A DNA stretch of 37,792 nucleotides from a virus (Duplodnaviria > Heunggongvirae > Uroviricota > Caudoviricetes). Of this stretch, positions 5,008 to 36,529 are shown piece after piece. The stretch lies in the IMG/VR virus record IMGVR_UViG_2690316153_000015. The stretch is one strand, 5' to 3'. A model generated the notes under the pieces. That model did not search any database. It was not told where the DNA came from and was given only the letters and a program-made list of their open reading frames with translations. The position numbers and the translations under genes are program-made. The stretch's first letter is position 1; each line of letters opens with the position of its first letter.

Positions 5008-7830
5008 ATGACGGCAGAGTACATCAGGGACTGGCAACAACCGCGCCACGCAGTGGGGCGTGAAGGAACGGGGATCCCCGCTCCTGAATCCGCGCTTTCC
5101 TCCTGGCTGGATGCCTACCGGGCAGAGAACGAGCGCCGCCAGGAAATGGCTGATGCGGCGTTCTCCGCCACGCCGCTGGGCAACCTGATTAATAAAAGCC
5201 TGGACGCACAGGAAAAACAGGACAAAACCATCACACTGGCAGGAGACGCCAGAAAACAGGCACGTGGCGCGGTGGATGAAGCCATGGCCTCACTGCGCCT
5301 GCTGCCGTCCTATCTGCGCGATCCGCTTATTCGCCACCTCTCCTTCCTGCGCAAAAAACAGGAAGCCGATCGCCGGAAAGGCAAAAAGAGCTGGCAGGCT
5401 GAACGCTACGCGTGCGGAACCCTGCGCAAAATATTCGAACGTCTGGACCGCACCGACCACCGCTGGCTGACACCGGGTTATCGCTCCCTTGCCGGACGCG
5501 AACGCCTGGATGATTTGCTTTACCTGCCGCAGCTCAACAAACACCAGATACAGACGCTGGCCACCATGACGGCGGCGATGTTCAGCAGCACCTTCGAAAA
5601 ACTCTGCGATGGCTTTGGCGCGACTGATGGCGAGCTGACCATGGATGTAACGCTGAAGGCTTATCAGATGCTGGCCCGCATGGCGTTACACCTGCACGCC
5701 ATGCCTCCACATTATGACGCACTGACAACAGACAAAGACCGGAGGAACGAACCGGACACGGAGCTGCTGCCGGGCGCAATCCTTCGCCTGACCTGTGCGG
5801 AATGGTGGAAACGCAAACTGTGGCTGTTACGTTGTGAGTGGCGGGAAGAACAACTCCGCGCCGCCTGTCTGGTTTCCAGAAAAACATCCCCCTATCTGAG
5901 CCAGGACGCGTTAAGCGAGTTTCGCGCACAGCGCGAGAAAACGCGCGATTTCCTGAAAAGTTTCATGCTGGAAAATGAAGACGGGTTCACGATTGATCTC
6001 GAGACGGTGTATTACGCGGGAGTAAGTAACCCGGTTCACCGTAAGGCAGAAATGATGGCCACCATGAAGGGACTGGAACTTCTGGCCGAAGCCCGTGGCG
6101 ACAGAGCGGTGTTTCTGACCGTCACCTGCCCGTCAAAATACCACGCAACAACGGAGAACGGTCATCCGAACCCCAAATGGAACGGGGCCACCATGCGCGA
6201 CTCCAGCGATTACCTGGTTAACACGTTTTTTGCGGCGGTCCGCAAAAAACTGAACCGCGACGGCCTGCGCTGGTATGGCATCCGCACGGTGGAGCCTCAC
6301 CATGACGGCACTGTGCACTGGCATATGATGGTCTTTGCACATCCGGACGAGATTGAAACCATCGTGTCCCACGTCTGCGATATTGCCATTCAGGAGGACC
6401 GCCACGAGCTGGGCGATGACATAACTCCGCGTTTTAAGGCGGAGTATGTCGACGGCTCAAAAGGCACACCAACCAGCTACATCGCCACCTACATCGGAAA
6501 GAACCTGGACAGCCGCGCCGTGGATGGCATCGACCCGAAAACGGGCAAGCCACGCGTTGACCACGAAACAGGTAAATCAATGGCCGAGAGCGTGGAGCGC
6601 GCCATCGGCTGGGCGCGCCTTCACCGGGTCCGTCAGTTCCAGTTCTTTGGCATCCCCTCCCGTCAGGTGTGGCGTGAACTGCGCCGCCTTGCCAGCCAGA
6701 TGGCACGCAATCCGGAAGGCCCGCAACGGCTGAAAGATGATGCAATGGATGCGGTACTCGCTGCCGCCGATGCCGGGTGTTTTGCCACCTACATTGAAAA
6801 ACAGGGTGGCGTGCTTGTTCCACGCAAGGACTACCTGATTCGCACCGCCTACGACCTCGCAGATGAGCTGAACGATTACGGCGAACAGAGCGTACAGATT
6901 TACGGGATCTGGTCACCACTCATCGGGGAATCCTCCCGTGTGTGCACGCATCCGGATAACTGGAAGCTGGTAAGACGTAAACCAGAACCGGAAGACAACG
7001 CCCACGAAAATGGTTTTGACCTTCAGGGCGGCCCTGCCGCCCCTTGGACTCGTGGCAATAACTGTCCCCGTGTACAGGAAACAGGCAACAACGGGACAGA
7101 ACAGCCGGAAGAACGGCCAGCACCGTGGCCGCAGCTTCCTGACGGCGTTGAAGTAAATGAATGGATGCGCTCACTGAAACGGCACGAACGCCGGGCGCTG
7201 ATGCGTTCGCTTCGTGACAAACAGGCAAAAAACAGCAGCGATGAAATGCAGAACTGGACACAGAGCCGCAAACAGCAGCGGCCTTTGCCTGATAACCACG
7301 AGTTACTCGCTAAAGAATGGCGGGAGTCTGCTGAATCTCTCGGCCTGCATATCGGTGAACAACAGATGCAGCACCTGTTACGGGGCGGCAGTCTGTACGT
7401 TGACGGCAGCATCATTGCACCGCAGGGATTTGAAATTGTACGCAAACCGGATACCCGCCCGGACAGCCGAATCACGCAGCTCTGGCAGCGTCTGAGCCGT
7501 AATCATGGCGTAAGCAGCACGGAGATCCGCCATAACCCGGTCGCCAGCTATCTGGCACAGCTGGGGGCATCAGACCCTGAAGCCGCCGCACGCCTGGCAT
7601 CCACACTTCAGCAGGACCAGAACACCATGAAAACACCCGTTACCGTGCTTTCTGACATGCTGCGCGCCATCCGCGACGCAGAGCACGCACAGAGAATCAG
7701 TGAAACCACTGAACGCGCCAGCCGCAAAGCAGACCTGCTGCGGGGTGGCCTGACCAGTGGAAACAAAAAACAGACAGAAACGGGACTCACGAATCCCGTA
7801 AATGAGCAAAAAACGCGCAGCGATATATGA
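5008..7830 (+). CDS. A: Replication initiation endonuclease A (rolling-circle, HUH superfamily)
   Basis: 940-aa ORF; HUH-like motif TVHWHMMVF and paired tyrosines YIATYIGK typical of P2 gpA / phiX174 A-type initiators; position after the early operon. Confidence 0.9.
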   Translation: MTAEYIRDWQQPRHAVGREGTGIPAPESALSSWLDAYRAENERRQEMADAAFSATPLGNLINKSLDAQEKQDKTITLAGDARKQARGAVDEAMASLRLLPSYLRDPLIRHLSFLRKKQEADRRKGKKSWQAERYACGTLRKIFERLDRTDHRWLTPGYRSLAGRERLDDLLYLPQLNKHQIQTLATMTAAMFSSTFEKLCDGFGATDGELTMDVTLKAYQMLARMALHLHAMPPHYDALTTDKDRRNEPDTELLPGAILRLTCAEWWKRKLWLLRCEWREEQLRAACLVSRKTSPYLSQDALSEFRAQREKTRDFLKSFMLENEDGFTIDLETVYYAGVSNPVHRKAEMMATMKGLELLAEARGDRAVFLTVTCPSKYHATTENGHPNPKWNGATMRDSSDYLVNTFFAAVRKKLNRDGLRWYGIRTVEPHHDGTVHWHMMVFAHPDEIETIVSHVCDIAIQEDRHELGDDITPRFKAEYVDGSKGTPTSYIATYIGKNLDSRAVDGIDPKTGKPRVDHETGKSMAESVERAIGWARLHRVRQFQFFGIPSRQVWRELRRLASQMARNPEGPQRLKDDAMDAVLAAADAGCFATYIEKQGGVLVPRKDYLIRTAYDLADELNDYGEQSVQIYGIWSPLIGESSRVCTHPDNWKLVRRKPEPEDNAHENGFDLQGGPAAPWTRGNNCPRVQETGNNGTEQPEERPAPWPQLPDGVEVNEWMRSLKRHERRALMRSLRDKQAKNSSDEMQNWTQSRKQQRPLPDNHELLAKEWRESAESLGLHIGEQQMQHLLRGGSLYVDGSIIAPQGFEIVRKPDTRPDSRITQLWQRLSRNHGVSSTEIRHNPVASYLAQLGASDPEAAARLASTLQQDQNTMKTPVTVLSDMLRAIRDAEHAQRISETTERASRKADLLRGGLTSGNKKQTETGLTNPVNEQKTRSDI

Positions 7831-7877
7831 AGCGCGCACAAAACAGGCAAAAACGGGATTTCAGAATCCCGTAAACG
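7770..7877. repeat. Two 36-bp direct repeats, each containing the dyad ACGGGA-N8-TCCCGT, straddling the A stop codon upstream of parM (parC-like centromere/operator candidate)
   Basis: ACAGACAGAAACGGGACTCACGAATCCCGTAAATGA (7770-7805) versus ACAGGCAAAAACGGGATTTCAGAATCCCGTAAACGA (7842-7877). Confidence 0.55.
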
Positions 7878-7906
7878 ATTAATTAATCAACATAAGGAAA
7901 ACCGAC

Positions 7907-8866
7907 ATGAAAATTTACATCGACGACGGCTCCACCAACATCAAGCTGGCATGGACTGAGAACGGCGAACGCCGCAACGCCATCAGCCCGAACAGCTTCA
8001 AGTCGGAATGGTCTGCGCCGTTCGGTGGCTCGCAGCCTGCTAACTACATGCTTGATGGCGTGCGCTATGGTTTTGATCCGGTCAGCGATCGCTTTGTCCA
8101 GACGACCGACACGCAATACCAGTACAGCGATGTGAATGTCATTGCCATTCATCACGCGCTGGTCAAATCAGACATCACGCCACAGGAAGTGGATGTGGTT
8201 GTTACCCTGCCACTGAGCGAATATTTCGACACAAACGCACAGCCGGACCTGGCCAACATCAACCGCAAAAAAGCGAACGTCATGCGCCCGGTGGAGTACC
8301 AGAACGGCGAAGCATTCACTATCCGTAACGTACGGGTTATGCCTGAATCCATTCCAGCTGGCTTTAAAGCACTGGCTGACATGAGTCCGTTTGAATCCCT
8401 GCTGATTGTGGATTTAGGCGGAACCACGCTGGATGTGGCAAAGGTTCAAGGGCAACTGGCAGGTATCAGCCAGGTGTTTTGCGATCCACACGTAGGCGTT
8501 TCCCTGATGGCCGATGCCGTACTGTCGGTGATGGCCACTAACGGTATGCGCACCAGTCACCACATCGCCAATACCATTATCGAACATCGCAATGATGAAG
8601 CCTGGCTGCGCCAGCACATCCACAATGACGCGCATTACGCCAGCCTGATGGCGGTTATTCGTGAAAAGGAAGAAACACTGAAACAACGCGTGATCCGCGC
8701 GCTGGCGGTTTTTTCGGGTTACGGGCGGGTGATGGTTGTCGGTGGAGGGGCGGAGATTGTGGCACCCGCTATCCGCGAAGTCTGCGGAGTTAATGCGACT
8801 TTCATCGCGGACGGGGTGCCACAGTTTGCTCTGGTTAATGGGCTGTACGCAATGGACAAGGAGTAA
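7907..8866 (+). CDS. parM: Actin-like plasmid segregation ATPase ParM/StbA family
   Basis: N-terminus MKIYIDDGSTNIKLAW...ISPNSFK...YSDVNVIAIHHAL closely resembles plasmid R1 ParM as I recall it; phosphate-binding DLGGTT and VGGGA motifs; 319 aa. Confidence 0.85.
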   Translation: MKIYIDDGSTNIKLAWTENGERRNAISPNSFKSEWSAPFGGSQPANYMLDGVRYGFDPVSDRFVQTTDTQYQYSDVNVIAIHHALVKSDITPQEVDVVVTLPLSEYFDTNAQPDLANINRKKANVMRPVEYQNGEAFTIRNVRVMPESIPAGFKALADMSPFESLLIVDLGGTTLDVAKVQGQLAGISQVFCDPHVGVSLMADAVLSVMATNGMRTSHHIANTIIEHRNDEAWLRQHIHNDAHYASLMAVIREKEETLKQRVIRALAVFSGYGRVMVVGGGAEIVAPAIREVCGVNATFIADGVPQFALVNGLYAMDKE

Positions 8867-8869
8867 ACC

Positions 8870-9185
8870 AATGACGACACCAACCAGACGGATAAGTTTC
8901 TATCTGAAGCCCGCCGCCGTCAAGAGTGAACAGGAGGCGTGCAATTACCTCGATAGCCTGCCAGCCTCCGAACGCAGCCGCGCGCAACGCGCGGCCTTTC
9001 TGGCTGGGCTAGCGCTCATAAAGCGCAACCCAGCATTTGCCTACTGGATGGCCGAATGGCCAGAGGACAACCTCCCCTTCAATACCGTTAGCATCAAGGA
9101 AACATACCAGGATAATCAGCCTAGCGGAGTTGAATGCAATTTTTATAAAATAAAAAAGAATATTCAAACCTTATTCCCAGAATAA
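8870..9185 (+). CDS. parR: ParR-like centromere-binding adaptor (ribbon-helix-helix)
   Basis: Start ATG at 8870 with AAGGAG RBS; RRISFYLKP...LDSLPASERSRAQRAAFLAGLAL resembles R1 ParR (…LDSIPQGERSRLNRAALTAGLAL); the longer track ORF from 8736 would overlap parM. Confidence 0.7.
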
Positions 9186-9234
9186 TCTGATAATTGTATG
9201 TGAACTAATAAAATACAGACCAACACATCATTCT

Positions 9235-9257
9235 GGCACCCTTGCTAACAGGGTGCC
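9235..9257. terminator. Hairpin GGCACCC-N9-GGGTGCC between convergent parR and the cassette
   Basis: Perfect 7-bp inverted repeat in the 83-bp convergent intergenic gap. Confidence 0.35.
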
Positions 9258-9268
9258 AATGTTTCAAA

Positions 9269-10111
9269 TCATGATGAAATTGCCGAAGTTTTTTTATCGT
9301 GCTGAAGTACCGCAAATGCCATTAAAACCTCAAGAGAATAGCGGCGATAATACTTAACAAAACCATAATAAAATACTCGGGATGCAGCAATACAAAACAA
9401 GAGAAGAAAACAAAAAGGTAACAGCCTGATATTTATATCTATTAAAAAGGATAGAAGGAACAGGAACATAAGCAACCAGACTGAAGCGAGAAAAACAAAT
9501 GTAATGTTTCTACAAAAACCATACAAAGCAACATAGTTTTGCATTTTCACCTGATGATTTTTAGAATGTTCATACACATAATGATAAGCAAGGCGAAAAA
9601 GATCGCCCCTCAAGCCCTTACGTCGATATAGCGTAGATACAGAAAAAACATTTATATAACCATCTCGTATTTGCGGCCAAAAGACTTTAATAAGTATAGA
9701 ATGCAGTGTGGTTTTATGATGTTCTGCTTTATCAAAAGCTGATACAGGAAATAAAAAAACTCCACGGATAAAATTAACTATACTGAACTTAGTATTATGT
9801 CGTTTTATTTTCAGGGAGCTTCTTTTAGAAAACAGATAAATTGAAGGATACCCAAGTTTACTGTTCATGTATTTTTCAATTAAACAGGATGATAGAATAG
9901 ATATGAAGTGACCTGAAATATATGATAGAACGATTAATACCACATATATAAATACACTTATTATTTCTTTATATTTCAGGATATGGTTAAGAATACCTTC
10001 TATATAAACAGGGTTAATTTCAATAGAAAACAAAAAAAGGATAAACAGGAATAACCCACCTGGAATTAGATAGCCCAAAAAGTCATAAAATGAAAACGGA
10101 TTCTGTGTCAC
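9269..10111 (-). CDS. Multi-pass membrane protein, unknown function (cassette gene 2); GTG start
   Basis: 280-aa ORF; at least four long hydrophobic segments; very AT-rich codon usage unlike flanking phage genes; GGGGGA RBS before GTG. Confidence 0.65.
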   Translation of the reverse strand: MTQNPFSFYDFLGYLIPGGLFLFILFLFSIEINPVYIEGILNHILKYKEIISVFIYVVLIVLSYISGHFISILSSCLIEKYMNSKLGYPSIYLFSKRSSLKIKRHNTKFSIVNFIRGVFLFPVSAFDKAEHHKTTLHSILIKVFWPQIRDGYINVFSVSTLYRRKGLRGDLFRLAYHYVYEHSKNHQVKMQNYVALYGFCRNITFVFLASVWLLMFLFLLSFLIDINIRLLPFCFLLLFCIAASRVFYYGFVKYYRRYSLEVLMAFAVLQHDKKTSAISS

Positions 10112-10150
10112 ACTTCCCCCTGTGTTACTTGTAAATTAAAGGGTAAAACA

Positions 10151-10648
10151 TTATTTGTTTTTCCGTAAAGGATTAGCTTTCCATCTTCTTACTAACCATT
10201 CGAATTCTTGATATGTAGTATCCGAATTAATGCTTTCTCTGATTGCTTTAATTAATGGCTCGGCAATATCATATGTCTCTACAACTGTTGTGTAAGATGT
10301 TCTTTTTATCATTTTTTCATCATAAATACCTTCACGAATACTTACAGCAACTCGCTCGTAAAAATTTAAAATATATTGAAATTTTCGACGCTCGGCCATT
10401 TCTTCATCTGTTATTATGCAACCATCACAAGGAAAAACATAAGAACGAAATGATTTGCCTGAACGATGCACTTGTTTCAGGGTATGCAATGACTCTATAT
10501 ATTGCATATCTTGCCGACTCTCAAAAAGAAAGTTGGCCGTTTGAGTTTTTTTTGCGGTACGCACATTGTAGATAATGGTTCCAATGGCAACCAAAACGCC
10601 AAGCAGAACAATAGCATTGCTGATGATTTGTAGTGTTATTGGGTTCAT
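10151..10648 (-). CDS. Single-pass membrane-anchored protein, unknown function (cassette gene 1)
   Basis: 165-aa ORF; N-terminal TM segment ITLQIISNAIVLLGVLVAIGTIIY then ~135-aa soluble domain with CDGC motif; AT-rich; 39 bp upstream of gene 2. Confidence 0.65.
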   Translation of the reverse strand: MNPITLQIISNAIVLLGVLVAIGTIIYNVRTAKKTQTANFLFESRQDMQYIESLHTLKQVHRSGKSFRSYVFPCDGCIITDEEMAERRKFQYILNFYERVAVSIREGIYDEKMIKRTSYTTVVETYDIAEPLIKAIRESINSDTTYQEFEWLVRRWKANPLRKNK

Positions 10649-24217: not shown

Positions 24218-24819
24218 TGAATAAAGCTGTATTAAATAGCGAACTCATTGCCATAAAAGCGGGAGATATTACCGTTTATAATTATGATGGTGAAACGCGG
24301 GAATATATTTCTACATCAACTGAATATCTCGCTGTCGGCGTCGGTATCCCGGCATGTTCTTGTTTAGATGCACCAGTTACACATAAAGCTGGTTATGCAA
24401 TCTGCCGTTCTGCAGATTTTAACTCATGGGAATATGTACCAGACCATCGCGGTGAAATCATCTATAGCACCGAAACAGGAGAATCGAAAGAAATCACAGC
24501 TCCGGGTGATTATCCTGAAAATACAACCACTATCGCCCCGTTAACGCCATACGATGAATGGGATGGTGAGAAATGGGTGACAGATACTGAGGCACAGCAT
24601 AGCGCCGCAGTAGGCGCGGCAGAAGCACAGCGTCAGTCACTGATTGATACTGCAATGGCTTCCATTAGTCTGATTCAACTGAAATTGCAGGCCGGGCGGA
24701 AGCTGATGCAGACAGAAAACCCCCGACTTAACGCTGTGCTGGATTACATTGACGCGGTGACGGCAACAGATACCAGCACAGCGCCGGACGTCATCTGGCC
24801 TGAACTGCCGGAGGCGTAG
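24214..24819 (+). CDS. G: Tail fiber assembly chaperone (P2 gpG-like), currently expressed orientation
   Basis: 201 aa; C-terminal DTSTAPDVIWPELP motif shared with the convergent gene at 24791-25210. Confidence 0.75.
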   Translation: MMNKAVLNSELIAIKAGDITVYNYDGETREYISTSTEYLAVGVGIPACSCLDAPVTHKAGYAICRSADFNSWEYVPDHRGEIIYSTETGESKEITAPGDYPENTTTIAPLTPYDEWDGEKWVTDTEAQHSAAVGAAEAQRQSLIDTAMASISLIQLKLQAGRKLMQTENPRLNAVLDYIDAVTATDTSTAPDVIWPELPEA

Positions 24820-25210
24820 GCCATTCAATATCTGGCGCACCGGAAGTATCGACCAGTTCCAGTGCGTCCAGATAATCCAGCCACAAATTATATTGCGCCA
24901 GTTCCTCACCTTTCAGGCGACCAATCGCCGCTTTACCTGGCCATTGTCTGCTGTTCATGTGCTCGTTGGCTTCATTAATAAGTTTTCTTTTTTTCAAATC
25001 CGCCAATGCAATAAGGTTTTCTTTTGATAAAGGTGGTTGCTCTGTCAAAACCGGATATCCCTCCTGATTGCTGACTATTTTCATGCCATTATCCTGACCA
25101 TCCAGTAGTAACAGCCATTCATCCGTGGTTATCTCAACAGCATCTGAAGGTGCTTTATTTAAATCGGTAAAAAAACCATTTTCTTTTTGTGAATAGAAGT
25201 ATCTATCCAT
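24791..25210 (-). CDS. Alternative tail fiber assembly chaperone (silent orientation)
   Basis: 139 aa; C-terminus VDTSGAPDIEWPTPP parallels G; converges on G at the segment centre. Confidence 0.7.
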   Translation of the reverse strand: MDRYFYSQKENGFFTDLNKAPSDAVEITTDEWLLLLDGQDNGMKIVSNQEGYPVLTEQPPLSKENLIALADLKKRKLINEANEHMNSRQWPGKAAIGRLKGEELAQYNLWLDYLDALELVDTSGAPDIEWPTPPAVQAR

Positions 25211-25213
25211 TTA

Positions 25214-25587
25214 TTAATCTCCAAAAGCAATCCAGTAAGCAAAAGGATTTATTCCTTGCTCAGTCACAGATGACATCAGGGAAAATTGCGATGGTGAAAC
25301 AGGTAACGCTGCAAAACTAACCATTGTTGACACACCTGACCGTGCATTATCGTACGATGCAACAACACAATAATTGGTATTGCTGAAAGATATCGGCAGG
25401 GTGATATTTACAGGTGAGCCTAATGGCCCTGATGCTGATATTCCCATTTGAATGATGGTTCCATCAGGCAATTTTCTCCAGCGATTAGAACTCGGATTTC
25501 TTTTCCAGGCTGACATATCCGGTATCTGATTTTCTCCTGTGCCCACATCCCTTTTCGCCGCTTCTCCCAAACCAACGTTTAAGAAAA
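25214..25587 (-). CDS. Alternative variable C-terminal tail-fiber exon (promoterless; fused to H constant part after inversion)
   Basis: Reading frame through the right crossover site encodes ...NVGLGE in the same frame as LGLGE at the left site; the track ORF 25214..25615 extends past the site to a fortuitous ATG. Confidence 0.6.
25562..25587 (-). repeat. Right inversion crossover site (hix/gix-like 26 bp): TTCTCCCAAACCAACGTTTAAGAAAA on plus strand
   Basis: First 12 bp are the reverse complement of GGTTTGGGAGAA at the left site; 55 bp upstream of the invertase start. Confidence 0.65.
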
Positions 25588-25642
25588 TGCAGAGATTACG
25601 GCTAACTGGCATCATCCCCGGTTTTTATTCAGGGGATCCATC

Positions 25643-26242
25643 ATGCTTATTGGCTATGTCCGCGTATCAACAAATGACCAGAATACAGAATTGCAGCGTA
25701 ACGCGCTGGAGTGCGCAGGATGTGAACTAATTTTTGAAGATAAAATCAGCGGAACGAAATCAGCCAGACCGGGATTGAAAAAACTGATCAGAACGCTATC
25801 AGAAGGAGATACGCTGGTTGTCTGGAAGCTGGACAGACTGGGCAGAAGTATGAAACACCTGATCACGCTTATTGAGGAATTGCGGGAAAAAGGTGTTAAT
25901 TTCCGTAGTCTGACGGACAGCATTGACACATCAACACCCATGGGGCGTTTCTTTTTTCACGTCATGGGGGCTTTAGCCGAAATGGAACGTGAATTAATTG
26001 TAGAGCGTACACTGGCCGGGCTGGCAGCAGCACGCGCACAAGGACGCATTGGCGGACGTCGCCCGAAGTTGACAAAAGAACAACACGAGCAAATAGCGAG
26101 GTTGATTAAAAACGGTCATGACAGGAAACAACTGGCGATCATTTACGACATCGGCATATCGACGATTTATCGTTATCACCCTGTAGGCGATATACAGGCT
26201 GAAGAAACAACCAGGCAGACTCAGGAAAATGAAAACCGCTAA
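25643..26242 (+). CDS. pin: Serine DNA invertase, Hin/Gin/Cin/Pin family
   Basis: 199 aa; N-terminal MLIGYVRVSTNDQ with catalytic Ser, resolvase core, C-terminal HTH; adjacent to the invertible segment. Confidence 0.9.
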   Translation: MLIGYVRVSTNDQNTELQRNALECAGCELIFEDKISGTKSARPGLKKLIRTLSEGDTLVVWKLDRLGRSMKHLITLIEELREKGVNFRSLTDSIDTSTPMGRFFFHVMGALAEMERELIVERTLAGLAAARAQGRIGGRRPKLTKEQHEQIARLIKNGHDRKQLAIIYDIGISTIYRYHPVGDIQAEETTRQTQENENR

Positions 26243-33231: not shown

Positions 33232-34254
33232 TTAATACGCATTTAATTTAAATTTGTATTTGCCTTCTATGTAATGGATAAATTCAATTATGCTTTTTTC
33301 TATCGCATCTAATATATGAATATATCCATCCCGATTTAAGGTCCTATCCAACTCAAAGTGATGAACTATCCCATGTCTATATTGTATGATTTCAGAAATT
33401 CGATTCTCAAGAAAATCAACTGATTTTCCAATTCTTTTTTTCTTATAAAGAATCGCTCTCACATCTATATCCAGCCACTCTTTATATGCTTTGTTTAGGT
33501 GGGTTAAGTTTTGAAAAGTGTAATTTCTTGCAATAACACTTTCTATTGAAATATTTCCTTTCTCTATCTCAAGCAGAATATCAAAATCAACTTTTTGCTT
33601 ATACGATGTTCTTTTTGCTATTGCGAAAGGATCGTACTTTATAAGTATTTGAAAAGCTCTAGAGAAAAAGTATTCAAACATAGCAACCGCAAAAGGTACT
33701 AATCCATTATATATAACTCTACTGGGATCCATACATTGCATGTAATCAAAGTATTCGGATAAGCCGCCATCTTCCGGTAGGTTTAATTTAATAGAAGGTT
33801 CAGGTAAGGCATGTTTAACAGCGGAAATCTCATGATGGACATGATTAAATATTGAAGAAATGCCACGACTGATCGGACTACTAGAATCCTTCCATAGAGG
33901 AGCGTACCTATTTTTCCCATAATCACCTATAAGTGTTCCACCAAAAAGACTCCTTGCGCCTTTTAGAACATCATTAAGCATTTTTACATCATGCCAACTA
34001 GCGCTATATAAATTACGCACATGCAATGCCCATTTATTACCAGATATGTGTAATTCGTCATTTGAAACAGGATATATATCAGCCGAAACTCCATCTGTAG
34101 ATTTGAAGTCCGTATCATCAAACCAAGAGTAATTCAACGTTCCTTGGGGCCATCCCCACAAATGTTTACACCTTTTAAAACCTAAATTTTCAAGGTAATT
34201 TTTAAGTTCGTTTCTAGTTGCTTTTTTAGGGTACAGCGTTATATCTCTTCCCAT
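33232..34254 (-). CDS. AT-rich hypothetical protein with C-terminal R-x4-H (HEPN-like) motif
   Basis: 340-aa ORF; low GC relative to backbone; motif YRHGIVHH near the C-terminus; inserted between D and ogr. Confidence 0.6.
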   Translation of the reverse strand: MGRDITLYPKKATRNELKNYLENLGFKRCKHLWGWPQGTLNYSWFDDTDFKSTDGVSADIYPVSNDELHISGNKWALHVRNLYSASWHDVKMLNDVLKGARSLFGGTLIGDYGKNRYAPLWKDSSSPISRGISSIFNHVHHEISAVKHALPEPSIKLNLPEDGGLSEYFDYMQCMDPSRVIYNGLVPFAVAMFEYFFSRAFQILIKYDPFAIAKRTSYKQKVDFDILLEIEKGNISIESVIARNYTFQNLTHLNKAYKEWLDIDVRAILYKKKRIGKSVDFLENRISEIIQYRHGIVHHFELDRTLNRDGYIHILDAIEKSIIEFIHYIEGKYKFKLNAY

Positions 34255-34445
34255 GCTTTATTCACCTGATATACAATATTTTAAATTTTAACTATTATGA
34301 ACGTATGAATTTTCACATTGGATGTATGGAAGTTCAACAACTATTGAAAGTTCAATTTTCACTCTTCGCACAGAGCGAGCTGTTAGTTGGAATTAGGGAT
34401 CGTACAATCTAGAATAGCGGCAACACCACGTTAAGGGAGGTCGCT

Positions 34446-34706
34446 ATGTTCCGTTGTCCGCTTTGTGGCGCATCTGCCCGTATCCGCACAAGTCGTCCGG
34501 AAAATGATTCAAACACCGTGCGGCAAAAGTATTACCAGTGTAACAATCTGGAATGCGGCGTATGCTTCTCAACACTGGAAGCTTTCCATAAATTCACATC
34601 GAAACACGCCTCCGGCGTTCACTCTTCAGAAGGTATCCCGTGGCATGAGCTACCAGCTTCACACAGGGGAAACAATCAGATGAGTTTGCCTTTACCTCAG
34701 AATTAA
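34446..34706 (+). CDS. ogr: Ogr-type zinc-finger late gene activator
   Basis: MFRCPLCGAS...QCNNLECGV gives the C-x2-C...C-x4-C pattern and N-terminus of P2 Ogr. Confidence 0.85.
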   Translation: MFRCPLCGASARIRTSRPENDSNTVRQKYYQCNNLECGVCFSTLEAFHKFTSKHASGVHSSEGIPWHELPASHRGNNQMSLPLPQN

Positions 34707-34896
34707 CAAGCAGAATTGCCGGAGTAACAAAAAAGCGATAGATTACGCGCGGGTGCCTTTCGGCTGATGGTCGGAGGGAATACCCGAAGGCCAGATGTGG
34801 AAAGGCCCCGGAAAACACTTTTGTTTAACCGAGGCCCTAACCGTCTACCCTAAGCAAGTGAAAGGTTAGCGCCTCTCCGGAAAAGGAGCAAGTGCT

Positions 34897-35037
34897 ATGT
34901 CGCAAAAATCGCTTACAGCCATCACGTTCTGCGTGACGGTAATCCTCATCATCTGGATGTTGCACGGTTCGCTGTGCGAAATACGGATGAGTTTCTGGGG
35001 AGCGGAGTTTGCGGCGTTCTTACAGTGTAAGCAGTAA
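34897..35037 (+). CDS. Hok/Gef-family type I toxin (46 aa: MSQKSLTAITFCVTVILIIWMLHGSLCEIRMSFWGAEFAAFLQCKQ)
   Basis: Single TM helix followed by the conserved SLCEIR...E.AAF signature of Hok/Gef peptides; AAGGAG RBS; GC hairpin GACGGGGGA-GTAAT-CCCCCGTC downstream; absent from the ORF track because under 60 aa. Confidence 0.65.
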   Translation: MSQKSLTAITFCVTVILIIWMLHGSLCEIRMSFWGAEFAAFLQCKQ

Positions 35038-35298
35038 GGAAACCGCGACGGGGGAGTAATCCCCCGTCAATCGGTTGCCAGGGTAAGGTCGATAAGGCAC
35101 CCTATCTCACGGCTCTAAATGCAAAAATTCCATGAAACTGTGGGATTTTTGCATCACTACTGATACAGATCTGCCCTTCTATATGTCTCACTCTATACCA
35201 GCTAATCAATTGACACTTATCAATAAAAAAAAATCTGATAAAATCAAAATGTTTTGTAACAAATATCAACTCGTATTGATCCAAAGGAGGCGGATTAC

Positions 35299-35631
35299 AT
35301 GGCATTAATCAAATGTCCTGAATGCCAGAAAGAGGTGAGCGATTCAGCATTGTATTGCCCTGCTTGCGGTAAACAAATAAAAAAACTTAAGCGTTCATTT
35401 TTTGGAAAGCTCATTAAGTGGATATTTATATTATTTAATATTTTTATGATCTATACGCTTTTAGTTGGACTGGGAGGCACTAGTGAAATAATAAATAATG
35501 CTACATCCGATGCCGAAAAAGCCGGTGCAGTTATTGGTACAGGCTTAGGTTTAATTACCATTGGAAGTTTATGGGTTATTGGCGATATCATTATCGGAAT
35601 TTTAGTATTTCTTACTAAACCAAAAGGATAA
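35299..35631 (+). CDS. Zinc-ribbon membrane protein (hypothetical)
   Basis: 110 aa; N-terminal CPEC-x13-CPAC zinc ribbon then two hydrophobic helices; AT-rich; GGAGG RBS. Confidence 0.6.
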   Translation: MALIKCPECQKEVSDSALYCPACGKQIKKLKRSFFGKLIKWIFILFNIFMIYTLLVGLGGTSEIINNATSDAEKAGAVIGTGLGLITIGSLWVIGDIIIGILVFLTKPKG

Positions 35632-35635
35632 CAAA

Positions 35636-36529
35636 ATGAAAAATATAATTTTTTCTATAGGTGCATCATTTATATCAATTAGTGTACTGCCTGTTCACGC
35701 AGCAACTGAACATAATAACTTCAATGCAGTACTCCAGTGCCGAGCAATAGAAAATAATAAAGACAGACTTTCTTGTTACGATAAGTCAATACAACCGACT
35801 CGAACGAAAGTTGCTGAAAAATTCGAAAGCAGAGATCAATGCCCTGATGAGAAAGATGATGACAGACGTTTATCTTGTTATGATCGTTTTTTTTCTCCAA
35901 CATTTACTCCATCTGTAAACTCAAAATCTAAAACGGAAAAGCCAGTAACAACAGAGGCTCAGCAACCAAATCTTTCTGAGATATCTAAATGCCGAGCAGA
36001 AAATGATAAAGAAGCCAGACTAAACTGCTACGATAAACTATTCCCACAGGATAAAGCTGTTCAAGCTGAATCAAAATTAGAGAAAGCCACAGATGTAGGA
36101 AAATGGCACACATCCATTACTACATCGCCAATTGATGATTCGAAAAATGTAATTTTATCGTTAGAAAGTGATGATTATATCAGAACTCCATTTGGAGAAG
36201 CGGTTACTCCCACTCTGTTTATAGCTTGCCGAGAAAAGAAAACCGAAGTATTTCTTAGTTGGGATGTATATTTAGGCCTTGAACAAACCAGCATGCTTTA
36301 TCGTCTTGATAAACAGAAAGCAGTTGAGCGAAACTGGCTAGTATCTACAGATACAAAGGCTGTTTTTTATAAAGGTAATGACATTGATTTCATCCGAAAA
36401 CTAGCCAACTCAAACAAAATGTATACAAAAATAACTCCTTATAATGAGAGCCCTGTAAGTGCAACTTTCAATTTAAACGGCCTGTCAAACGCGCTAAAAC
36501 CACTTCAAGCTGCTTGTAACTGGAAATAG
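35636..36529 (+). CDS. Secreted protein with three tandem C-x12-C-Y-D repeats (hypothetical)
   Basis: 297 aa; signal peptide ending VHA-AT; repeats CRAIENNKDRLSCYDK, CPDEKDDDRRLSCYDR, CRAENDKEARLNCYDK; 4 bp after the upstream gene. Confidence 0.65.
   Translation: MKNIIFSIGASFISISVLPVHAATEHNNFNAVLQCRAIENNKDRLSCYDKSIQPTRTKVAEKFESRDQCPDEKDDDRRLSCYDRFFSPTFTPSVNSKSKTEKPVTTEAQQPNLSEISKCRAENDKEARLNCYDKLFPQDKAVQAESKLEKATDVGKWHTSITTSPIDDSKNVILSLESDDYIRTPFGEAVTPTLFIACREKKTEVFLSWDVYLGLEQTSMLYRLDKQKAVERNWLVSTDTKAVFYKGNDIDFIRKLANSNKMYTKITPYNESPVSATFNLNGLSNALKPLQAACNWK

Follow-up and report, generated by a model that had tools for sequence, protein, structure and literature searches.

Why should a temperate phage that integrates into the chromosome of its host carry, directly behind its replication gene, what appear to be the partition genes of a plasmid? 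The question is raised by a 37.8-kb stretch of phage DNA (the window, by which we mean the whole stretch analysed) that represents a genome of the phage P88 type (Xuanwuvirus, Peduoviridae). Its P2-like surroundings comprise a tyrosine integrase gene at 1-1020, the gene for the replication endonuclease gpA at 5008-7830, and portal and terminase genes downstream of the pair in question, parM and parR; gpA was the sole replication gene recognised in the window with Pfam. Because the window begins at the stop codon of the integrase gene, integration is deduced not from its own letters but from chromosomal copies, 98.6% identical, that are present in hundreds of complete E. coli genomes. The features with which we are mainly concerned are as follows.

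5008 to 7830, plus strand: gpA, replication endonuclease, 940 aa (Pfam Phage_GPA, E 1.7e-129; phrog_91, 'nicking at origin of replication')
7764 to 7805, plus strand: repeat 1 of a 42-nt direct repeat, with palindrome ACGGGACTCACGAATCCCGT at 7780-7799; inside the 3' end of gpA; candidate parC-like ParR site
7837 to 7878, plus strand: repeat 2, with the perfect 8+4+8 palindrome ACGGGATTTCAGAATCCCGT at 7853-7872; in the spacer between gpA and parM; candidate ParR operator or centromere
7907 to 8866, plus strand: parM, actin-like ATPase, 319 aa, starting MKIYIDDGSTNIKLAW (Pfam, PDB 1mwk, phrog_691)
8871 to 9185, plus strand: parR, centromere-binding adaptor, 104 aa, containing LDSLPASERSRAQRAAFLAGLAL (Pfam Plasmid_stab_B, phrog_2515)
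8925 to 9185: parR from the end of DNA homology to P88 onwards (other parR alleles at 9820-10131 in locus L001 and 5965-6276 in locus L011)
9234 to 9258, no strand assigned: perfect inverted repeat of 9 bp (TGGCACCCT / AGGGTGCCA), separating parR from the convergent low-GC cargo genes

The occurrence of ParM and ParR in a P88-like phage, and the main idea that it prompts, of an episomal phage, have already been annotated and remarked on in print. The RefSeq copies in P88, phiSM and other Xuanwuvirus records are named 'plasmid segregation protein ParM' and 'partition protein', and PHROGs has dedicated 'partition protein' families for both (phrog_691 for ParM, phrog_2515 for ParR). In their analysis of the gpA-Q locus in P2-like phages of E. 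coli, the site of tin and old in P2 itself and of defence systems in other P2-like phages, Rousset et al. (2022; PMC9122126) voiced the episome idea for the partition genes found there. In the paper describing phiSM, the gene is listed simply as a 'fitness' factor (PMC6456863). A literature search for experiments on ParM in P2-like phages (binding, filament or phenotype) found none. What the present analysis contributes is the definition of a candidate cis site, and the placing of the cassette with the replication module rather than with the defence hotspot.

ParMRC is a type II plasmid segregation system, and the original prediction was that a module of this kind, like that of plasmid R1, lay in a P2-like prophage at a position where P2 has no such genes. 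Pfam, the alignment with PDB 1mwk and the ParR alignment agree that a plasmid-type (R1-type) ParM and ParR are indeed encoded in this P2-like temperate phage, the matches to both families being significant and far beyond chance, and tin and old occupy the same position in P2. As to size, the 319 residues predicted for ParM were correct, whereas ParR has 104 residues (ATG at 8871, stop codon at 9183-9185) and not 105. Residues 1-157 of ParM match Pfam StbA_N (E 3.6e-80), and residues 159-316 match the ParM C-terminal domain (E 2.3e-68); residues 1-316 align with R1 ParM (PDB 1mwk, E 1.6e-92), the identity to the ParM encoded by R100 (the same protein as that of R1) is 46% by tblastn, and phrog_691 is matched with E 8.1e-88. 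A search of NCBIfam gave sub-threshold matches only. In the 1mwk alignment the motifs DDGST..K (residues 6-13), PES (146-148), DLGGTT (169-174) and GGGA (279-282) are identical to those of R1, and D6-D7-G8-S9-T10-K13, E147, D169-L-G-G-T-T174 and G279-G-G-A282 are invariant in seven ParMs of the phage clade, whose identity to the window protein goes down to 54%; the assignment of catalytic residues follows the R1 literature. On this alignment, the phage protein possesses every nucleotide-binding motif of the R1 type. Moreover, purifying selection acts on both parM and parR; for parM, dN/dS was 0.00-0.18 across 21 pairs of sequences.

ParR matches Pfam Plasmid_stab_B over profile positions 1-70 of 72 (E 7.7e-29) and phrog_2515 with E 1e-54; there is also a weak match to the ParR of pB171 (PDB 2jd3, E 0.012). 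Alignment showed the N-terminal strand TRRISFYLKP to be conserved, and near the C-terminus KKNIQTLFPE aligns with KKNAMKLIN of R100 ParR, N97 and L101 being invariant in seven sequences. In R1 the C-terminal tail of ParR is reportedly the ParM-binding peptide (the work associated with PDB 4a62). The window ParR thus has the N-terminal DNA-binding region of the family, together with a C-terminal motif that can be aligned with this tail. Shine-Dalgarno sequences precede both genes, that of parR overlapping the parM stop codon, and parR is predicted to be translationally coupled to parM.

In these respects, the cassette is much like the parMRC (stbAB) system of R1 and R100: the genes come in the order parM, parR and their translation signals overlap, there are repeats immediately ahead of parM, the alignment of ParM is full-length, and ParR belongs to the same Pfam family, with the N-terminal strand and a C-terminal KKN..L motif common to both. 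It differs in being carried by an integrating P2-like phage instead of a plasmid, in the separate clade formed by the phage ParMs, and in the small size of its ParR, since R100 ParR has 116 residues and is only 33% identical. A further difference concerns the DNA upstream: R1 and R100 have ten 11-bp direct iterons flanking a promoter, whereas the window has two 20-bp palindromes 73 bp apart and no consensus promoter.

Where, then, might ParR bind? The 42-nt repeats 1 and 2, which are 81% identical and also lie 73 bp apart, each contain one of these palindromes, the second of them in the 76-bp spacer between gpA and parM, 35 nt ahead of the parM ATG. The palindromes share the motif CGGGAYT-N4-AATCCCG, of which there is no other copy in the window at up to two mismatches. 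P88, the ST131 phage, a circular record considered below (L009) and loci L011 and L012 have this motif in the same two positions, and it occurs nowhere else in those loci, the whole phage of L009 included; a Salmonella locus has the exact motif at the second place only, its first palindrome having one change. Among seven alleles, the arms of the palindromes are invariant and variation is confined to the central four nucleotides. Both are predicted to form hairpins (-9 to -10.7 kcal/mol), that of palindrome 2 having the lowest energy (-10.7 kcal/mol, z -4.4). In Plesiomonas, two related units (GCGGGACAAC...CCCG) occur 72 bp apart, and the N-terminal strand of ParR is TRRISFYLNP; in Serratia and Enterobacter there is instead an inverted repeat, ATAGAAAAAT / ATTTTTCTAT, with its halves 26-28 bp apart, and the ParR strand is NRKISFYLKP. 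The ParR strand and the upstream repeat thus change type in step, TRR going with the CGGGA palindromes and NRK with the ATAGAAAAAT inverted repeat. The repeat search that gave these results recovered, as a control, the classical 11-bp iteron array of R100 parC; upstream of the phage parM it found no R1-style 11-bp iterons beyond the two 42-nt units. The palindrome pair is therefore rightly placed and changes with ParR, yet is built unlike R1 parC, and we regard it as a candidate site for ParR binding. It should be added that two sites, compared with the ten 11-bp iterons of R1 and R100, may be too few for a ParR ring.

Some smaller details of this region may be mentioned. The last 70 nt or so of gpA (about 25 codons) overlap repeat 1, and a change from Leu to Phe (CTC to TTC), present in certain gpA alleles, makes palindrome 1 perfect, so that the cis element seems to constrain the end of the gpA protein. 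Between palindrome 2 and the ribosome-binding site of parM, the sequence TTAATTAATCAA at 7879-7890 does not vary within the E. coli group, and Hafnia and Plesiomonas have ATTAATCAA in the corresponding position; the TTAATTAATCAA element might serve as a weak -10 region or as a protein-binding site. AAAC motifs are spaced roughly every 10-11 bp upstream of parM, in a stretch too short for this to be meaningful.

How might the cassette be transcribed? No sigma-70 consensus promoter was found in 7500-7907, and inspection by hand of the region between gpA and parM gave only weak promoter candidates, which were not conserved in Salmonella; nor did a terminator scan find any plus-strand terminator between the two genes. 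Since neither a consensus promoter nor a plus-strand terminator separates gpA from parM, we infer that the cassette is co-transcribed with the early replication operon, parMR being reached by read-through. Such read-through would give parMR a function early in the lytic cycle or in establishment, instead of one expressed in the lysogen, and ParR might possibly exert feedback on transcription at palindrome 2. The transcription unit probably ends at the inverted repeat at 9234-9258, which was not flagged by the terminator scan because no run of T follows it.

The cassette region is 96-99% identical to those of Escherichia phage P88, Citrobacter phage phiSM, other Xuanwuvirus records and an ST131 prophage, and P88, phiSM and the other Xuanwuvirus phages have the same module, with ParM 96-98% identical, in the same position after gpA and with the same palindromes. 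The window nevertheless differs from P88 in its ParR allele and in its downstream cargo. ParR has at least three allelic forms, with 52-62% identity to that of the window, among phages whose ParMs are 96-98% identical; the window allele is that of the ST131 prophage, and is 56% identical to P88 ParR. At the DNA level, homology to P88 stops near 8925, within parR, from which it seems that the recombination boundary of the hotspot is within this gene. On its left side, the variable hotspot of these phages begins within or beyond parR, and not at gpA. In the window, parR is directly followed by a low-GC island (9269-10648, minus strand; 32-34%, against about 55% around it) of two convergent genes, one encoding a 280-aa protein that appears hydrophobic by eye (phrog_12528, with a weak PADLOC match to Csx27, E 1.9e-5) and the other a 165-aa DUF4760 protein. 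Because of their situation in the gpA-Q defence hotspot after parR, these two genes are a candidate anti-phage pair.

A survey of related prophages, of the kind recommended with the original prediction, showed that the cassette recurs after gpA across six genera. ParMs of the phage clade are 54-100% identical, their hosts being Escherichia, Salmonella, Hafnia, Plesiomonas, Serratia and Enterobacter; those from the last four genera are 54-62% identical to the window protein, and all are encoded downstream of gpA (with one or two small ORFs intervening in two of these loci). There, parM is followed by parR, by cargo genes that vary (among them HicAB and a KAP NTPase) and by the portal gene, in some cases with ogr before the portal. 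In a scan of species-representative genomes, gpA was upstream of every ParM that was at least 54% identical and of none that was 53% identical or less. In a neighbour-joining tree (constructed without support values) the phage ParMs form one clade, apart from those of R100 and other plasmids, the nearest plasmid ParM being about 52% identical to that of the window. An E. albertii locus (L011) has gpA and ParM 98% identical to those of the window but a portal protein only 30% identical, indicating that the cassette travels with the replication module. This type of gpA is present in 1355 complete E. coli genomes (at a coverage of at least 80%) and parM in 1279-1303, a co-occurrence of about 95% when counted by genome, not by locus; about 24% of complete E. 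coli genomes have parM, among them ST131, O157:H7 and O104:H4 strains. The cassette thus has a long history in P88-like and related P2-like phages, where it is under selection and nearly fixed as part of the replication module. The separate clade of phage ParMs and their linkage to gpA across genera speak against recent capture from a plasmid, and the high co-occurrence with gpA and the constant position in six genera against free swapping as hotspot cargo.

Phage-plasmids are extrachromosomal prophages such as P1, D6, N15 and SSU5. Is the P88-like phage to be counted among them? Both the original prediction and Rousset et al. (PMC9122126) would have the partition genes maintain the prophage as a low-copy plasmid for many generations, as an alternative to integration, and the plasmid type of the cassette fits such a role. 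Yet in 5426 complete E. coli genomes parM occupied 1441 chromosomal places, compared with two on plasmids, and the 'plasmid' matches in PLSDB were mostly very large records. The exception that deserves attention is a 34,461-bp circular 'plasmid', pZ1323PEC0009-2 (NZ_CP148288.1), from a cat E. coli assembly, which is a complete P88-like phage; a contig bearing the module in Plesiomonas is also phage-sized, at 32,167 bp. The circular record is joined next to the integrase gene, as an excised circle would be, and a 99.9% identical twin of it is integrated in the chromosome of strain Z1323HEC0067. Free phage circles are abundant after infection or induction, and the record may be excised DNA resulting from spontaneous induction. 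Furthermore, the tyrosine integrase has been kept, and P2 gpA is an early lytic gene silenced by the immunity repressor, so that a prophage kept as a repressed plasmid, with gpA as its sole recognisable replication gene, would not replicate. The separate replicon and plasmid-type replication that define phage-plasmids were thus lacking in these phages, with the one circular record as the exception. Long-term plasmid maintenance seems to us improbable, and the cassette probably does not serve it. The part of the episome idea that survives is a transient circular stage, which the one circular whole-phage record makes plausible, while the chromosomal counts and the retention of the integrase speak against a regular plasmid state.

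The original prediction also allowed that the module interferes with competing plasmids or phages, perhaps (as cargo for competition or defence) by titrating or mis-segregating incoming DNA with related centromeres. The location invites this suggestion, for the gpA-Q hotspot is where tin, old and the defence systems of other P2-like phages reside, and immediately behind the cassette come variable genes (DUF4760 in the window, HicAB or a KAP NTPase in other loci). No evidence in support of it emerged, however: PADLOC gave no match for the cassette, the palindrome is absent from the other loci compared, and cross-reaction with plasmid systems is unlikely because of the low identities to the nearest plasmid ParM and to R100 ParR. 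Nor does parMR share with the anti-phage cargo of the hotspot either variable presence or membership of known defence families, being near-fixed with the gpA lineage and constant in position across genera; we consider interference very improbable indeed. Somewhat more credible, though still unlikely, is that the hairpins are no centromere at all, but structural elements in RNA or DNA that might, for instance, end leftward antisense transcription or stabilise the early transcript, ParR having its real site elsewhere or the cassette being a decaying relic without a cis site. T-rich runs follow both hairpins on the minus strand, where they were scored as terminator-like, and the folding energies given above fit this reading; and parM truncations are common, occurring in hundreds of database sequences (a 229-aa cluster, n=649, and a 188-aa cluster, n=555), in addition to which a single frameshift sequence fuses ParM to ParR. 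The common truncations imply that the gene is dispensable, at least for keeping a prophage, and the truncated and fused variants together that the module has decayed in some prophage lineages. On the other hand, the downstream cargo of P88 is on the plus strand, so that there is no obvious leftward transcript to be stopped; repeat 1 is inside the gpA coding sequence; an R1-type centromere occupies exactly this position in the R100 control; and the purifying selection on parM is not what would be expected of a relic.

By a modest margin of belief, and judging from sequence comparisons, we favour the view that the cassette is a functional ParMRC-type apparatus by which circular phage DNA is moved following infection or excision. 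ParR dimers would bind the two palindromes, one at the end of gpA and the other in the parM leader, and filaments of ATP-ParM, capped by the ParR-DNA complex, would move circular phage genomes apart or towards a favoured site. The substrate would be the extrachromosomal circle present after infection or excision (P2-type replication by gpA gives circles that are monomeric), and the gain either better replication or packaging, or the delivery of unintegrated circles to both daughter cells; lasting persistence in plasmid form would not be the benefit. A fuller proposal, which we put forward tentatively and as perhaps rather than probably correct, is that an integrating P2-type phage has its own actin-like spindle in its replication module, with ParMR, acting on the two palindromes at the gpA end, separating or positioning the monomeric circles made by gpA during lytic growth, or taking unintegrated genomes to both daughters. 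This would amount to a short 'plasmid phase' in about one-quarter of P2-like phages, including the ST131, O157 and O104 prophages.

There is a precedent in the integrated prophage CGP3 of Corynebacterium glutamicum, the only tested case of such a prophage cassette that we found, in which the actin-like ATPase AlpC and the DNA-binding adaptor AlpA, with the upstream site alpS, are induced early and are needed for full phage copy number; the system acts on excised circular phage DNA and raises the efficiency of its replication (PMC4446434). As in the window, motor and adaptor are encoded in an integrated prophage, with sites for the adaptor (candidate ones in the window) upstream of the operon, whereas the CGP3 adaptor gene comes first (in the window the motor gene does), and CGP3 is a large, cryptic prophage of a Gram-positive host; the resemblance is one of function, not of family membership. 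A ParM homologue among the StbA-type partition genes of Escherichia phage D6 (47.5% identity over 99% of the length) is likewise phage-borne, but D6 is, by its 91-kb record and annotation, a plasmid prophage in which a partition system is expected, while the window phage integrates. If the P88-type cassette does act on phage circles, then cytoskeleton-assisted replication, as with AlpC and PhuZ, would extend to a small, well-studied and genetically tractable phage family, with implications for the frequency of abortive lysogeny as an outcome of infection.

Finally, we draw attention to two further regions of the window. A serine recombinase gene (25643-26242, plus strand; Resolvase and HTH_7, E 8.9e-52) adjoins oppositely oriented Caudo_TAP tail-fibre assembly genes (24791-25210, minus strand), and 24791-26242 as a whole looks like an invertible tail-fibre switch of host range of the Gin/Cin kind. 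At the right end, a second low-GC stretch (33232-36529, 35-37%) encodes a 340-aa protein with a weak, sub-threshold match to RiboL-PSP HEPN (E 1.2e-4), a zinc-ribbon protein and a VasI-like protein (E 2.6e-25); a 'T6SS VasI family protein' is also listed for phiSM (PMC6456863).
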